Shown: positions 8,517 through 55,019 of the stretch, piece by piece
Layout: every line of letters begins with the position of its first letter
Numbering within the stretch: position 1 is the stretch's first letter
Assembly (NCBI RefSeq): GCF_044647545.1
Contig: NZ_CP172818.1
Length of the DNA: 64,000 nt
Source of the DNA: Escherichia coli
GTDB lineage: Bacteria > Pseudomonadota > Gammaproteobacteria > Enterobacterales > Enterobacteriaceae
Strand: one strand, 5' to 3'
The notes under the pieces: generated by a model
What the model saw: the letters and a program-made list of their open reading frames with translations, nothing else
Database searches by the model: none
Told to the model about the DNA's origin: nothing
Made by a program: the position numbers and the translations under genes

Positions 8517-8570
8517 GTGCCGGATACAGCGCAAACGCCTACTTCAGTATCAGATGGTTGAAAAGAACCT

Positions 8571-10547
8571 TTATATTATCACTCCATTAAGAAGAAAATC
8601 GCCCCGCCCCCGACCTCTTCTGATGGCGGGCTTTTTTTCGGCGCTCTCTTGCGTGGCGAATCCTTTTTCTTCCCCTTCTCCACCGCCGGGAGCCATTATT
8701 CCCCGAAACTGCCTTACCGACGTGCGCTTTGCCTGATCAATCAACTGGTACAATGTCCCCACCAGCGGCTGCATAAAGTCCTGGTAGCGACACTGCTTTT
8801 CGCTGATTTGCGTCAGCACCGATTCCCAGTGCGCGGTCATGTCCGGTCGCGTCGCCATTTCTGGCAGCGAATGGAATAGCGCTTTTCCGGCGTCGGTGGA
8901 GTGGATATAGCGCCCTTTTTTGGTCAGGAAACCACGCTTGAACAACAGTTCAATAATCCCGGCACGGGTTGCTTCTGTCCCCAGACCATCGGTCGCACGA
9001 AGGATCTTTTTCAGATCTTTGTCCTGCACAAAGCGTGCGATCCCGGTCATCGCCGAAAGCAGTGTTGCATCGGTAAAATGGCGCGGCGGCTGGGTTTGCC
9101 GCTCTACCACTTCACCTTTTTCGCACAACAATTCATCGCCTTTCGCCACCACAGGCAGCGGCATGCCGTCGTTTTCTTCATCGCGCTCTTTGCTGCCTAA
9201 CAGCGTGCGCCAGCCTGCTTCAGCAAGAAAACGGGCTTTAGCGACAAATTTGCCTTTGGCAATGTCCAGTTCGATAACACACTTGCGGAACACCGCATCC
9301 GGGCAGAACTGCATCAAGTACTGACGGGCAATCAGGTTATAGACCTTCGCTTCGTTCTCCGTCAGGTTGATCGCAGAACTCCGTGCGGTCGGAATGATGG
9401 CGTGGTGCGCATCGACCTTTTTGTCATCCCAACAGCGGTTGCGTATATCTGGATCTACCACTGGCTGCGGCAACAGATCCGGTGCATGAACGCTGATAGC
9501 ATTCATCACCGCGTGGCGTCCGGCAAAATGTTCTTCTGGCAAATAGCGGCAATCGGAACGCGGATAAGTGATTAGCTTGTGCGTTTCGTACAGCTTCTGG
9601 CAGATATCAAGCACGTTCTGCGCGCTCAGACCAAAACGTTTAGCCGCTTCAATCTGCAACGCCGAAAGCGAAAAAGGAAGCGGCGCGGATTCTGATTCCC
9701 GTTTATCGTTATAGCTGGTGACAATAGCTGGTTGACCACTAATGCGGTTAACCACATGCTCCGCCAGTGGACGATGTAACAAGCGCCCTTCTTCATCCTG
9801 GTACGGTTCACACGCTTCGCTCGGTTGCCAGATAGCGGTAAACCGCTCATCGGCAGGTGTCACGATATGTGCTTTGACTTCAAAGAAATCTTTCGCCACG
9901 AAGTTTTCAATCTCTTCGTCGCGGCGCACCACCAGTCCGAGTACGGGCGTCTGCACGCGTCCCACGGAAAGTACGCCCTGATAACCGGCATTGCGACCGA
10001 GAATGGTGTAAGCGCGGGTCATATTGATGCCGTACAGCCAGTCAGCTCGGGCTCGCGCCAGTGCAGAAACGCACAGCGGTACAAACTCGCTATTGGAGCG
10101 AAGACGATCGATCGCCCGCTCAACCGCCTGCGGGTTCAGGTCGTTTATCAAACAACGCTGTACCTGCTGGCGCTTTTCCGGTGCCAGTTGCAGGTAGTCC
10201 AGCACTTCATCCACCAGCAGTTGCCCTTCGCGATCCGGGTCTCCGGCGTGAACGATTTCGCTGGCTTCATGCAGGAAGCGTTTGATGACATTAAGTTGTT
10301 TAGTCACGGAGGGTCGGGGCTGTAATTGCCACTTTTCCGGGACAATTGGCAAATCCGCAAGATTCCAGCGCGCATAGCGGCTGTCGTAGGCGTCTGGCTG
10401 CGCCTGCTCAAGCAGGTGACCGATACACCAGGTCACCACCTGACCATTACCGCACTCGATAAAGCCATCGCCTTTCCGGTGCGGTTTAGGCAGGACATCA
10501 GCAATGGCGCGCGCCAGACTCGGTTTTTCGGCAATAAACAACCGCAT
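8571..10547 (-). CDS. topB: DNA topoisomerase III
   Basis: Starts [16 protein letters not shown] (Toprim); about 658 aa versus the recalled 653 aa K-12 length; the C-terminal 21 codons are encoded by a GC hairpin plus T-run sequence. Confidence 0.9.
8600..8639 (+). terminator. candidate gdhA terminator lying inside the topB 3' coding end
   Basis: GC-rich cccgcc...ggcggg pairing followed by T7 on the plus strand, 85 nt after gdhA stop. Confidence 0.4.
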
Positions 10548-37663: not shown

Positions 37664-37768
37664 CTAGCCTGTCCGTTCGATAAGAAGAACGGACAAAACC
37701 AGCACAACAGCAATGGCAAAAAACGATGACGTGATAATCAGTGTCTCGACGAACATTTGATCGTTCAT
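37664..37768 (-). CDS. yoaI: 34-aa small inner membrane protein
   Basis: Read by hand: [34 protein letters not shown]; below the ORF-track cutoff. Confidence 0.75.
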
Positions 37769-40863: not shown

Positions 40864-41118
40864 TTATTTTTCACCAGCCGGATGGTCCCGTCGCCACAAT
40901 GCCCATTCATCAATCGTTTCACCGCCCGGTAATTTGCAATTGTTGCTGACCCCTTGCGCTGTCTGCACTGGAATGAGCGTCCCGCCCTTCTGCTGGCAAT
41001 AGACCGACGCCGGATTTGCCATACCAATCTGTGGCGGTTTAGGTGCTTCTGGCTGAGAAGGGGTTGAACAACCAGCCAGGACCAGCAAGCAAGGCAGAAC
41101 AAAACTGATAATTTTCAT
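40864..41118 (-). CDS. yoaF: DUF333 lipoprotein
   Basis: 84 aa; lipobox LAGC. Confidence 0.85.
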   Translation of the reverse strand: MKIISFVLPCLLVLAGCSTPSQPEAPKPPQIGMANPASVYCQQKGGTLIPVQTAQGVSNNCKLPGGETIDEWALWRRDHPAGEK

Positions 41119-41300
41119 TTATTGATCTCACATATTTATCCAGACTTAGAGTATCGCGGTATCGTTTTGTTTTGCAGCACTATTTTTATTACATTCACTC
41201 AAAACATATTACGCCTTGTTTCATCTTTGTTGATGATGTTTTATCATGCCTGCAAAGATTAAATAATCAGCATTTACCCGCCGTATCCTGGAGTTGTTTC

Positions 41301-42326
41301 GTGTCAGATCAGATTATCGCCCGCGTCTCGCAATCCCTTGCCAAAGAACAGTCACTGGAAAGTCTGGTTCGACAGCTTCTGGAGATGCTGGAAATGGTCA
41401 CTGATATGGAATCAACCTACCTGACCAAAGTGGATGTCGAAGCGCGCCTGCAGCATATAATGTTTGCCCGTAACAGCCAGAAAATGCACATCCCGGAGAA
41501 TTTTACCGTCTCGTGGGATTACTCGTTATGCAAACGCGCCATTGATGAAAACTGCTTTTTCAGCGATGAAGTCCCCGACCGTTGGGGCGACTGTATTGCG
41601 GCACGCAATCTTGGCATCACCACATTTCTGAGCACGCCAATTCACTTACCGGATGGATCATTCTATGGCACGCTTTGCGCCGCCAGCAGTGAGAAGCGCC
41701 AGTGGAGTGAACGCGCGGAACAGGTTTTGCAGTTATTCGCCGGACTGATTGCACAATATATTCAAAAAGAGGCGCTGGTAGAACAGCTGCGCGAAGCCAA
41801 TGCCGCACTGATAGCGCAATCGTATACCGACTCGTTAACCGGGCTACCGAATCGGCGGGCGATTTTTGAAAATCTGACGACGCTGTTTTCTCTCGCCCGG
41901 CATCTTAACCATAAGATAATGATCGCGTTTATCGACCTGGATAACTTCAAATTAATCAACGATCGTTTTGGTCATAATAGTGGCGATCTGTTTCTCATTC
42001 AGGTTGGCGAGCGCCTTAATACGCTCCAGCAAAATGGCGAAGTTATTGGTCGTCTCGGCGGTGATGAGTTTTTGGTTGTTTCACTGAACAACGAGAATAC
42101 GGATATTTCGTCGCTGCGAGAACGTATTCAACAGCAAATACGTGGAGAATATCACTTAGGTGATGTTGATTTGTATTATCCCGGTGCCAGTCTTGGCATA
42201 GTAGAAGTCGATCCTGAAACGACCGATGCAGACAGTGCCCTGCATGCTGCCGATATCGCGATGTATCAGGAGAAAAAACACAAACAGAAAACACCTTTTG
42301 TCGCGCATCCAGCGCTACATTCCTGA
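41301..42326 (+). CDS. dgcP: GAF-domain diguanylate cyclase
   Basis: 341 aa from GTG (VSDQIIARV); intact GGDEF motif (RLGGDEFLVV). Confidence 0.85.
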   Translation: MSDQIIARVSQSLAKEQSLESLVRQLLEMLEMVTDMESTYLTKVDVEARLQHIMFARNSQKMHIPENFTVSWDYSLCKRAIDENCFFSDEVPDRWGDCIAARNLGITTFLSTPIHLPDGSFYGTLCAASSEKRQWSERAEQVLQLFAGLIAQYIQKEALVEQLREANAALIAQSYTDSLTGLPNRRAIFENLTTLFSLARHLNHKIMIAFIDLDNFKLINDRFGHNSGDLFLIQVGERLNTLQQNGEVIGRLGGDEFLVVSLNNENTDISSLRERIQQQIRGEYHLGDVDLYYPGASLGIVEVDPETTDADSALHAADIAMYQEKKHKQKTPFVAHPALHS

Positions 42327-42358
42327 GGCGTATTCACATCCTTTTGATTGGTGATAAC

Positions 42359-42457
42359 ATGCGAATCGGTATTATTTTTCCGGTTGTAATCTTTATTACA
42401 GCGGTCGTATTTTTAGCATGGTTTTTTATTGGCGGCTATGCTGCCCCGGGAGCATAA
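42359..42457 (+). CDS. yoaK: 32-aa small membrane protein
   Basis: Read by hand: MRIGIIFPVVIFITAVVFLAWFFIGGYAAPGA. Confidence 0.7.
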   Translation: MRIGIIFPVVIFITAVVFLAWFFIGGYAAPGA

Positions 42458-42459
42458 AG

Positions 42460-42534
42460 ATGAAAAAAACAACGATTATTATGATGGGTGTGGCGATTAT
42501 TGTCGTACTCGGCACTGAGCTGGGATGGTGGTAA
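42460..42534 (+). CDS. yoaJ: 24-aa small membrane protein
   Basis: Read by hand: MKKTTIIMMGVAIIVVLGTELGWW; starts 2 nt after yoaK stop. Confidence 0.7.
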   Translation: MKKTTIIMMGVAIIVVLGTELGWW

Positions 42535-42592
42535 CGTCACATCTAGAAAATAGCAAAGGCTGCCTGTGTGCAGCCTTTGTGCAATTTACGCG

Positions 42593-42841
42593 TTAACTTT
42601 TAATCTTTCTGTAGATAAACAGCACGACAATCGCGCCAATAACGGCAACCACGAAGCTGCCAAAATTGAAGCCATCGACTTTACCAAAGCCAAACAGCGT
42701 GCTGATCCATCCGCCGACTACGGCACCGACTATCCCCAGCAGGATAGTCATAAAGAATCCACCACCATCTTTACCTGGCATGATCCACTTCGCCAGAATA
42801 CCGGCAATAAGCCCAAAAATAATCCATGACAGAATGCCCAT
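42593..42841 (-). CDS. yeaQ: GlsB/YeaQ/YmgE-family small membrane protein
   Basis: 82 aa; Gly-rich transmembrane segments. Confidence 0.85.
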   Translation of the reverse strand: MGILSWIIFGLIAGILAKWIMPGKDGGGFFMTILLGIVGAVVGGWISTLFGFGKVDGFNFGSFVVAVIGAIVVLFIYRKIKS

Positions 42842-42988
42842 TGTTTCCTCACTTATCTGTTTTGCATTAGCGGGTTAGTCGCTGATAAAAAGCATAGCAC
42901 AACATCGGGAGGGCAAGATTTGTGACGAGCATCACGGAGGAATTTTTTGCGATGGCGCAGAAATTGCGCCATCAACGATCAGTGATAA

Positions 42989-43171
42989 TTACCAACCACA
43001 AACATCATGTTCGTTTTCCGTGTCATAAGAACGCACGGTATTCACCAGATCTTTTATCACTTCAGCCGCCACTTCTGGTACCAGCAAAGTCATCGGCGTC
43101 TCTGTTTCATAATCGACAGAAACGCCATTGCTGTTATTGGTGACGGTCACGGTATACGTTGCTTTGCCCAT
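42989..43171 (-). CDS. yoaG: DUF1869 small protein
   Basis: 60 aa; immediately downstream of yeaR (4 nt gap). Confidence 0.8.
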   Translation of the reverse strand: MGKATYTVTVTNNSNGVSVDYETETPMTLLVPEVAAEVIKDLVNTVRSYDTENEHDVCGW

Positions 43172-43174
43172 GAT

Positions 43175-43534
43175 TCATTTCCCGTTATGAATGACTTTCC
43201 GTTGTTGCGCGCCTTCCATCAGGACTTCAGGAGCAACGAAGAAGTCAATGTTGAAATAAGTGTCGTCAGTCATGGCTTCAATGTTGTGCCACTTTTCTGG
43301 AGGGAACACCGCAAACTGCCCCGCTTCGATAAGGATCACTTGATCAGGCTCTGCACTGTGTTCATCAGCGTAGCCGAGATATTTGACCGCCCCATGCATA
43401 ACGGAAAGGCGTGGGTAAACCCCCGGGCGCGTTCCTTTATCAAGATGACGTTCGAATATTCCGGCAGGCGCAGTTTGTTTATTCCAGAAAGGCGTTGAGC
43501 GCGTATGAATATAATTCTGTGGGATTTGCAGCAT
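43175..43534 (-). CDS. yeaR: DUF1971 (tellurite-resistance-related) protein
   Basis: 119 aa; synteny. Confidence 0.85.
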   Translation of the reverse strand: MLQIPQNYIHTRSTPFWNKQTAPAGIFERHLDKGTRPGVYPRLSVMHGAVKYLGYADEHSAEPDQVILIEAGQFAVFPPEKWHNIEAMTDDTYFNIDFFVAPEVLMEGAQQRKVIHNGK

Positions 43535-46628: not shown

Positions 46629-46940
46629 ATTCGTTCTTTTCAGTAAATAACCTGCGTCATTTCACCTTTTATTGTTTCCGTTTCGTGTTTTATGGCTTTC
46701 CGTATTCTTAATTGTTTAATTTATGTAACATGCAAATAATCAATTTGTTAAACACAACATACAACTCATTACCCTGCAAATAATTACAACTGGCAAAAGC
46801 CAGAGACGGGTTTTTATGCCCAGGAGATGACTCATATAGCAATGTTAAAAAAAAAGATGGCTAAAAATTTTTTTTTTAACTTTTCCCCAAAAAAACCCAA
46901 AAATTTTGTTACGCGTACGTTAGGTTCCGCCGTACAGGTA

Positions 46941-54323: not shown

Positions 54324-55019
54324 TCATTCTTTGCCCGGAAGTTTCTTCCATGCGACGTTGTTACGTAAATAAACCGGTTCGGCATGTTCCACCGCCACCG
54401 TTTTACCCTCGGCAAACATCTGGCAGGCAATCGGCAGCATATCTTCTGCAGCGGGCAGTAACACTTCGCCATCGCACAGGGCCAAACCGCTCTCTTTACC
54501 GAGATCCGGCCAGGCTTGCCAGCCCGTCCCTACCGTCACCCATTCGCCGGAAAGCTGTTGCATCCGTTCATGAACGAGTTCAGGTTTGAGTACGGCTTCG
54601 GTTTCTTCACCGTGCCAGATACCGTTTTCATCACGCTGATATTCGGCCCAGTAAACTTCGCCCATTCGCGCGTCAATGGCTGCCAGCACGCGTGTTGCGC
54701 CGTTTTTGCGCCACGCCCCTTGCGCCATCGTCATTAGCGTGGAGACGCCAATCATCGGTAATTCCGCGCCAAGCGCCAGCCCTTGCGCGATGCCAATACC
54801 AATGCGCACGCCAGTAAAGCTACCGGGGCCGCGCCCGTAAGCCAGAGCATTTATGTCCGTCAGGGAAGTTCCACTGGTGGTCAGGATATCCTGCACCATC
54901 GGTAAGATTCGTTGAGTATGTTCACGAGGGCAAAGCTCAAAATGAGCGTTGACAGTACCGTCGTTCCACAGGGCGACAGAGCAGGCCTCTGTCGCGGTAT
55001 CGATAGCCAGAATTCGCAT
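54324..55019 (-). CDS. tsaB: tRNA t6A37 threonylcarbamoyltransferase subunit
   Basis: 231 aa; starts [17 protein letters not shown]. Confidence 0.95.

Follow-up and report, generated by a model that had tools for sequence, protein, structure and literature searches.

Results

The yoaK-yoaJ pair and its surroundings

The window, that is, the whole 64,000-nucleotide stretch of Escherichia coli DNA that was analyzed, contains two very short genes, yoaK and yoaJ, placed one directly after the other between the diguanylate cyclase gene dgcP and the convergent gene yeaQ. Two other small genes, yoaI and yoaH, are present elsewhere in the window. The features are the following, numbered from the first nucleotide of the window:

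41301 to 42326, plus strand: dgcP (yeaP), diguanylate cyclase (RefSeq annotation mapped onto the window)
42350 to 42354, plus strand: Shine-Dalgarno sequence of yoaK, GGTGA, weak (read from the sequence)
42359 to 42457, plus strand: yoaK, 32 aa, MRIGIIFPVVIFITAVVFLAWFFIGGYAAPGA (ATG at 42359, TAA at 42455-42457)
42448 to 42452, plus strand: Shine-Dalgarno sequence of yoaJ, GGGAG, 7 nt before the ATG and within the yoaK-terminal Gly-Ala codons
42460 to 42534, plus strand: yoaJ, 24 aa, MKKTTIIMMGVAIIVVLGTELGWW (ATG at 42460, TAA at 42532-42534)
42553 to 42580, no strand assigned: 11-bp, GC-rich stem-loop between yoaJ and yeaQ (terminator scan and RNA fold)
42593 to 42841, minus strand: yeaQ, GlsB/YeaQ/YmgE family membrane protein, 82 aa, a convergent neighbor outside the unit
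37664 to 37768, minus strand: yoaI, small membrane protein, 34 aa in its ATG form, inside a longer GTG-started ORF
58304 to 58483, minus strand: yoaH, UPF0181 protein, 59 aa (ORF, NF003476, PF03701, b1811)

The start codon of yoaK lies 32 nt after the dgcP stop codon. A spacer of 2 nt (AG) separates yoaK from yoaJ, the two ORFs being in different frames, and the yoaJ stop codon is 58 nt away from the 3′ end of yeaQ.

The short ORFs are known E. coli genes

The four genes have counterparts in K-12 MG1655 (yoaK, b4676; yoaJ, b4675; yoaI, b1788; yoaH, b1811), with the same order and spacing as in the window. The window is not K-12 itself: over 12 kb it shares about 98.2% identity with K-12, and with strain FDAARGOS_497 the identity is 99.9%. 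Within the yoaK and yoaJ ORFs, the sole difference from K-12 is one synonymous change, at position 42394 in yoaK, and YoaK, YoaJ and YoaI have the same amino acid sequences as in K-12 MG1655. For the pair, RefSeq gives the labels "yoaK: YoaK family small membrane protein" and "yoaJ: protein YoaJ", with coordinates that coincide with those of the ORFs, and it also annotates yoaI and yoaH at their sites in the window. A search of 5426 complete E. coli genomes found a match (at least 95% identity) to the 1.2-kb region in 5418 of them, and 5417 matched a 231-bp stretch spanning both yoaK and yoaJ.

All four proteins were compared with NCBIfam equivalog models, which have curated cutoffs. In these profile HMM comparisons YoaK scored 69.1 bits against NF033821 (cutoff 32; residues 1-32 of 32), YoaJ 60.4 bits against NF011343 (cutoff 54; residues 1-24 of 24), YoaI 79.8 bits against NF041475 (cutoff 45) and YoaH 114.2 bits against NF003476 (cutoff 72); the latter also matched PF03701 (UPF0181) with an E-value of 2.8e-29. 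Thus, yoaK and yoaJ are already catalogued E. coli genes; yoaI and yoaH, too, are real genes with an annotation.

These results bear on the original prediction, which had described ORFs of 32 and 24 aa lying 2 nt apart with dgcP and yeaQ on either side. Its coordinates for the pair were exact to the base, and the minus-strand ORFs that it had assigned to yoaI and yoaH were both found where it had placed them. It had regarded the ORFs as small-protein genes known from K-12 rather than as novel genes, with which the K-12 annotation, the identity of the peptides and the NCBIfam models all agree. Its further statement, that an ORF track with a 60-aa cutoff misses real genes, was borne out, since four genuine annotated genes with products of 32, 24, 34 and 59 aa, all below that cutoff, were hidden in the window. 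Furthermore, its list of small genes was complete, as yoaK, yoaJ, yoaI and yoaH are the only CDSs shorter than 60 aa annotated across the whole equivalent region, both in K-12 and in the 99.9%-identical genome.

Both frames are maintained as coding sequence

We considered the possibility that yoaK and yoaJ are chance frames in the 3′ UTR of dgcP or in the terminator region, from which no protein is made. Short ORFs are indeed plentiful: 30 ORFs of at least 20 aa overlap the 1.3-kb stretch around the pair, and the window as a whole contains 397 ATG-started ORFs of 20-59 aa. By themselves, the yoaK and yoaJ ORFs are therefore not above chance; it is their conservation, together with their annotation, that raises them above it.

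Scanning a single genome from each bacterial species yielded 113 loci with a YoaK relative, 80 of which were fetched and analyzed. The genera represented include Escherichia, Salmonella, Citrobacter, Enterobacter, Lelliottia, Leclercia, Klebsiella, Raoultella, Kluyvera, Kosakonia and Pluralibacter. Of these 80 loci, 79 carried yoaK as an intact ORF of 31-34 codons; the remaining one came from a frameshifted assembly of Citrobacter amalonaticus. A yoaJ homolog followed directly in 64 of the 80; it was nearly always 24 aa long and ended with GWW, apart from a GCW variant, a form of 25 aa and, in C. sedlakii, a problem with the start frame.

The frames were then compared by pooled pairwise Nei-Gojobori estimates of pN/pS on the distinct sequences (75 for yoaK and 60 for yoaJ). 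For yoaK, pN/pS amounted to 0.18 in the annotated frame, as compared with 1.6 and 2.7 in the other two frames of the same strand; for yoaJ, the corresponding values were 0.28 in the annotated frame and 1.1 and 1.8 in the other two. In both genes the variation fell mostly on the third codon position, and no in-frame stop was present in any sequence. These findings indicate that both frames are kept as coding sequence. The original prediction had named the conservation of the reading frames in related genomes as the test on which it should stand or fall, and the frames are conserved.

Conservation was also evident at the level of the peptides. An exhaustive HMMER search with YoaK led to 25 representative clusters, which have in common the core M[RK].G..FP..[IV]F..A..F..WF..GGYA.P; P8, A15, W21, F22 and A28 were invariant in the alignment of these representatives. 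Among the 75 distinct sequences, the invariant residues were G4, F7, P8, F12, A15, F18, L19, W21, F22, G25, G26, Y27, A28 and P30. The YoaJ peptide of the window conforms to the pattern M[KR]K[TS]T...A....G...GWW, and K3, T5, A12, G18, G22 and W24 were invariant in the 60 distinct YoaJ sequences.

Chance frames do not account for low pN/pS values that hold over dozens of species while the other same-strand frames are mostly above 1 and contain stops, nor for a conserved Shine-Dalgarno sequence (see below) and matches above cutoff to curated family models. Moreover, tagged YoaK and YoaJ proteins have been detected in published work. We consider the likelihood of mere chance frames to be close to negligible.

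YoaK and YoaJ are hydrophobic peptides, whereas YoaH is not

In both peptides, basic residues (Arg2 of YoaK; Lys2-Lys3 of YoaJ) come before a single hydrophobic helix. The GRAVY index of YoaK is 1.88, and among the 397 short ORFs of the window only YoaK and YoaI reached a value of at least 2.5 in a 19-residue Kyte-Doolittle window, the best such values being 2.79 for YoaK, 2.72 for YoaI, 1.95 for YoaJ and 0.81 for YoaH. The basic N-terminus followed by a single helix fits a predicted single-pass topology in the inner membrane, N-in/C-out, for both YoaK and YoaJ. Two other hydrophobic short ORFs are found at 46740-46835 and 54752-54850, both on the minus strand and both devoid of annotation.

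The published data on these proteins can be summarized as follows. YoaJ is described in one study as integrally associated with the membrane with a type II, N-in/C-out topology (PMC4597795) and in another as induced by diamide (PMC12542507). The purified intramembrane protease RseP cleaves both YoaK and YoaJ, with results that vary according to the tag and the assay and that are tag-dependent in vivo (PMC10470546).

As to the two other small genes of the window, yoaI has a strong Shine-Dalgarno sequence (−8.6 kcal/mol), and its product is reported to link PhoR-PhoB to EnvZ-OmpR, activating EnvZ-OmpR (PMC11429745). In its title, the original prediction had counted yoaH among the small membrane-protein genes, which did not hold: YoaH, a UPF0181 protein, is hydrophilic (GRAVY −0.47) and devoid of a hydrophobic segment. 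It is a soluble protein, not a membrane protein, yet its gene is a real one below the cutoff.

The pair probably lies at the end of a dgcP transcript and is conserved independently of its neighbors

In K-12, yeaP(dgcP)-yoaK-yoaJ has been called as a three-gene operon from RNA-seq (PMC4620388). Across species, yoaK directly follows dgcP wherever dgcP is present, and a dgcP ortholog is found upstream in most of the syntenic genera. Salmonella and some Citrobacter have no dgcP at this place and keep yoaK-yoaJ-yeaQ; Klebsiella and Kluyvera keep dgcP-yoaK-yoaJ and are without yeaQ, a gene that adjoins the pair in Escherichia, Salmonella, Citrobacter and Enterobacter. Since dgcP or yeaQ is missing in some genera, the conserved unit is the yoaK-yoaJ pair itself, and neither neighbor is obligatory. 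The absence of dgcP in Salmonella and in some Citrobacter also means that the pair can be expressed without dgcP and that it functions independently of DgcP.

The stem-loop at 42553-42580 had a folding energy of −21.1 kcal/mol (z = −2.5), and the terminator scan gave a match there on the minus strand (42579 to 42554). On the plus strand, the U-tract that follows the hairpin is weak (UGUGCAAUUU). This hairpin is probably a bidirectional intrinsic terminator common to yoaJ and yeaQ, at which plus-strand transcripts would also end. We infer that, in this strain too, dgcP, yoaK and yoaJ would be transcribed together, with the pair in the 3′ part of an RNA that finishes at the hairpin.

The promoter scan returned 2 promoter-like matches, as compared with 4.2 in shuffled sequence. 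The plus-strand match, at 42333-42360, overlaps the start codon of yoaK, and we therefore took it to be due to chance. The minus-strand match, which is sigma-70-like, is located inside yoaJ (42506 to 42478) and is of interest with respect to another possibility, namely that yoaK and/or yoaJ encode peptides of the kind of the type I toxins Ibs, Ldr, Hok and TisB, silenced by an antisense RNA. The size and the hydrophobicity of YoaK and YoaJ do resemble those of type I toxins, and RseP also degrades Hok toxins, which were screened together with YoaJ and YoaK (PMC10470546). Yet the promoter-like matches did not exceed those in shuffled sequence, and an Rfam scan of 41000-43500, limited as it is to known families, gave no match at E ≤ 1. 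Furthermore, type I loci are repeated and patchy in their distribution, whereas the present locus occurs in a single copy and keeps its synteny from genus to genus, and its genes come last in an operon, with a Shine-Dalgarno sequence, not behind a long structured leader. Finally, YoaJ and YoaK have been tagged and overproduced with no toxicity reported, though the toxicity of HokB was a focus of the PMC10470546 study. Taken together, these data make a type I toxin very unlikely.

The junction between yoaK and yoaJ points to translational coupling

The distance between the two genes varied with the lineage. Escherichia, Salmonella and many Citrobacter have a gap of +2 nt, and the C. amalonaticus group has one of +3 nt. 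The two genes abut (0 nt; TAAATG or TAAGTG) in Enterobacter, Lelliottia and Leclercia, whereas they overlap by one nucleotide (−1 nt; TAATG) in Klebsiella spallanzanii and by four (−4 nt; ATGA or GTGA) in Kluyvera, Pseudocitrobacter and the other Klebsiella/Raoultella-like loci. The relative frame of yoaK and yoaJ thus shifts between lineages while both peptides are kept, which excludes a YoaJ extended at its N-terminus as well as a conserved programmed fusion. One such extended form, a 38-aa YoaJ starting at the ATG at 42418, was discarded because its frame relative to yoaK varies by genus and because, in Enterobacter, the yoaK stop codon directly precedes the yoaJ ATG.

We then assessed the Shine-Dalgarno sequences through the energy of their duplex with the anti-Shine-Dalgarno sequence. 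For yoaJ, this energy amounted to −6.6 kcal/mol in the window; its mean was −7.3 kcal/mol over 62 loci, 97% of which were at −4 or lower, as compared with −2.1 at random positions of the same loci. In the 16 loci that have only yoaK, the mean at the equivalent site was −2.75 kcal/mol, with the Pro-Gly residues of YoaK retained. As these loci lack the Shine-Dalgarno sequence and still keep Pro-Gly, the motif tracks the presence of yoaJ and not the protein sequence of YoaK. The Shine-Dalgarno sequence of yoaK was weaker (−2.8 kcal/mol in the window; mean of −4.8 over 80 species versus −2.1 at random positions). This weak GGTGA fits the published low expression of YoaK: the chromosomally tagged protein is reported to be detectable only in small amounts and to rank with the more poorly expressed of the small proteins (bioRxiv 10.1101/511675).

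The RNA from the end of dgcP to the start of yoaJ did not fold more stably than shuffled sequences (z = −0.8), and we therefore make no claim that the Shine-Dalgarno sequence is masked by structure. In the window, the stop codon of yoaK and the start codon of yoaJ are within a few nucleotides of each other, and the downstream Shine-Dalgarno sequence is inside the upstream ORF, as is typical of coupled pairs. This geometry, and a Shine-Dalgarno sequence that is present only along with yoaJ, point to translational coupling of the two genes. Ribosomes that finish translating yoaK would then most likely re-initiate at yoaJ or unmask it.

Relatives of YoaK recur beside the repressor genes of prophages

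The more divergent members of the YoaK family are not housekeeping copies of the chromosome. Two such representatives were located in the immunity regions of prophages, 12-48 nt downstream of a Peptidase_S24 repressor gene. An HTH_3 domain was reported for the repressor in one of these two loci, and hicAB-type genes came after the YoaK-like ORF. A tblastn search of phage genomes detected a YoaK-like ORF in the lambdoid phages HK106, mEp234 and mEp506 and in a Klebsiella phage; the GenBank records of HK106, mEp234 and mEp506 carry no annotation under the match. In HK106, the order is PRM, the repressor gene, a 32-codon ORF (MRIGIVFPILVFIVAMGFMAWFIIDGYATPSG), hicA-hicB and PL. The slot held by this ORF is the one in which phage lambda carries rexA-rexB, and RexB is an inner-membrane protein.

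A scan of viral contigs provided 86 YoaK relatives. Of 80 viral-contig matches, 31 turned out to be dgcP-yoaK flanks of the host at the edges of predicted proviruses, not phage genes, and were excluded. This left 53 phage or provirus loci, a number that includes the two prophage loci and the phage records. The YoaK ORF was situated 12-172 nt downstream of a CI-type repressor gene, on the same strand, in 46 of the 53, the repressor carrying HTH_3 either alone or together with Peptidase_S24. The phage copies pass the NF033821 cutoff and are under purifying selection, with a pN/pS of 0.27 (33 distinct sequences). A yoaJ partner was never found next to them.

YoaK-type peptides are not represented by any family in the PHROGs collection. 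The prophage copy is already recognized by annotation, as the NCBI pipeline names it "YoaK family small membrane protein" in six E. coli genomes; among the papers that our literature search covered, none discussed it.

The recurrence of the family in prophages suggests that it may have a membrane function that is expressed in lysogens. At its broadest, this would make YoaK a mobile peptide whose home includes the lambdoid immunity region, where it would be co-transcribed with CI and act at the membrane, either in phage exclusion or in the physiology of the lysogen, the chromosomal pair being a domesticated version that gained yoaJ later. We put this forward tentatively and consider it more doubtful than probable by a wide measure. 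A stronger version, in which YoaK is at root a prophage-borne gene expressed in lysogens, possibly for superinfection exclusion or defense, and in which the domesticated chromosomal pair has a related role at the level of the membrane and is not a partner of DgcP, appears to us still less likely. The position of the ORF just downstream of a CI-type repressor gene in most of the phage loci, its location in HK106, after the repressor gene driven by PRM and before hicAB, the purifying selection and the NF033821 match of the phage copies, and the persistence of yoaK-yoaJ without dgcP in Salmonella all speak for it. Yet the phage copies are never accompanied by yoaJ, the chromosomal copies are vertically stable, and adjacency to a repressor gene indicates likely expression in the lysogen rather than what the peptide does.

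Discussion

The present analysis leads to the following account, to which we assign a probability of about 0.9: yoaK and yoaJ are known genes encoding single-pass peptides of the inner membrane with a cytoplasmic N-terminus, they would be expressed from a dgcP-yoaK-yoaJ transcript, their translation is most likely coupled, and their products may modulate a membrane protein. The part that concerns the role of the peptides is drawn by analogy with other small membrane proteins, according to which YoaK and YoaJ may bind a larger membrane protein and modulate it; binding and tuning of such a protein is, in our opinion, their most likely function.

With respect to K-12, there is nothing biologically new in the yoaK-yoaJ pair of the window. 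The value of the analysis is in the comparative picture of the pair, i.e. purifying selection on both frames, a coupled junction that varies between lineages and a Shine-Dalgarno sequence that tracks the presence of yoaJ, and in a functional lead. This lead is the recurrence of YoaK beside prophage repressor genes, which does not change the verdict that the pair was already known. The analysis also illustrates the cost of a 60-aa threshold in an ORF track, as four annotated genes were hidden in a single 64-kb window, all of which could be recovered from the raw sequence.

The closest known system is the K-12 locus itself, in which the peptides, the gene order, the 2-nt spacing and the neighbors dgcP and yeaQ are the same as in the window. 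There is no difference of substance between the two, the window simply representing another E. coli lineage.

Type I toxins such as Ibs, Ldr, Hok and ShoB are, like YoaK and YoaJ, short hydrophobic peptides of the inner membrane, some of which are substrates of RseP. Unlike them, the present pair is without a match to an antisense RNA family, single-copy and syntenic, placed last in an operon and devoid of reported toxicity.

The phage relatives of YoaK resemble rexA-rexB of lambda in their placement, since in HK106 the ORF, adjacent to hicAB, is flanked by the repressor gene on one side and has PL beyond it. This likeness is one of position and applies to the phage relatives; in sequence, the 32-aa peptide with its single helix is unrelated to the Rex proteins.

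Translationally coupled gene pairs are known with ATGA, TAATG and TAAATG junctions, and these are exactly the forms that the yoaK-yoaJ junction takes from one genus to another, with the Shine-Dalgarno sequence inside the upstream ORF. Escherichia differs from the overlapping pairs in having a 2-nt gap instead of an overlap, and the proposed coupling is deduced from the geometry of the sequence.

Finally, YoaK and YoaJ resemble the small proteins of the MgrB-PhoQ, AcrZ-AcrB and YoaI-EnvZ systems: all have at most 50 aa and a single transmembrane helix, are linked to stress or to the stationary phase, and are missed by ORF cutoffs. MgrB, AcrZ and YoaI each have a partner, and for YoaK and YoaJ this likeness offers, by analogy, the working hypothesis that they too may act on one.

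The dgcP-yoaK-yoaJ junction

The start of dgcP, the gene preceding yoaK, is placed at 41301 (341 aa) in the RefSeq and K-12 annotations, whereas mechanical translation extends it to an upstream TTG:

41172..42326, dgcP, mechanical ORF with TTG start, 384 aa

In E. coli RS571 (NZ_CP034389.1 2214342..2216318), the 1.2-kb yoaK-yoaJ stretch is interrupted by IS1A and is otherwise 100% identical; the annotated dgcP pieces suggest that the insertion falls within dgcP.

Frameshifts occur occasionally near the yoaK-yoaJ junction. In Citrobacter amalonaticus AUH_CA_2023_1 (locus L014, from 3001), yoaK reads through to 62 aa, and in C. sedlakii (L009, ~3103) the start of yoaJ is out of frame, near an AAAAA run. 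Fused YoaK-YoaJ forms also exist among the database proteins (P0002, P0008). These frameshifts and fusions are probably assembly errors at homopolymers.

Two differences from K-12 were observed in the window. At 8519..8597, the ~1.3-kb ynjI-bearing segment found between gdhA and topB in K-12 is missing, as it is in strain FDAARGOS_497. Conversely, ~160 bp (46738..46900) of the AT-rich intergenic region between dmlA and yeaV are not found in K-12; this segment contains many A/T homopolymers, differs in length from that of FDAARGOS_497, and includes one hydrophobic ORF that is probably due to chance:

46740..46835, minus strand, hydrophobic ORF, 31 aa

Predicted proviruses bordering dgcP-yoaK

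About 30 predicted IMG/VR proviruses (L139-L167, ~38 kb), carrying a YoaK of the Klebsiella type, terminate precisely with the stop codon of yoaK; the host dgcP lies immediately 5' of that gene. The provirus calls therefore take in host flank, and a prophage commonly adjoins dgcP-yoaK in those genomes. Evidently, the IMG/VR pipeline did not call yoaJ as a gene.

YoaK-family ORFs in phage immunity regions

YoaK-family ORFs are also carried by the immunity regions of lambdoid prophages and phages (L084-L087 and L089-L137), for instance:

L084 3001..3105, YoaK-family ORF, prophage/phage
L085 3001..3099, YoaK-family ORF, prophage/phage
L086 2501..2599, YoaK-family ORF, phage HK106

A CI-type repressor gene lies 12-172 nt upstream on the same strand in 46 of the 53 phage and prophage loci, and hicAB follows 3' in some of them, including HK106. 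No yoaJ partner was found beside these ORFs, and PHROG holds no family for them. Their pN/pS of 0.27 indicates purifying selection.

The GenBank records of three phages have no feature annotated at the 32-codon YoaK-like ORF:

HK106, JQ086369.1/NC_019768.1, 30464..30559
mEp234, NC_019715.1, 28168..28263
mEp506, PV340542.1, 6991..7086

In six E. coli prophages, PGAP gives the same sequence the label 'YoaK family small membrane protein'.

Chromosomal yoaK-like genes without yoaJ

Sixteen species (L062-L077; Kosakonia, Pluralibacter and related species) possess a yoaK-like gene with neither yoaJ nor the internal Shine-Dalgarno sequence. These genes are chromosomal and non-syntenic, their neighbours being a YejM-like sulfatase gene, ecotin or transporter genes, and their sequences resemble the phage-type copies more closely than the dgcP-linked type.
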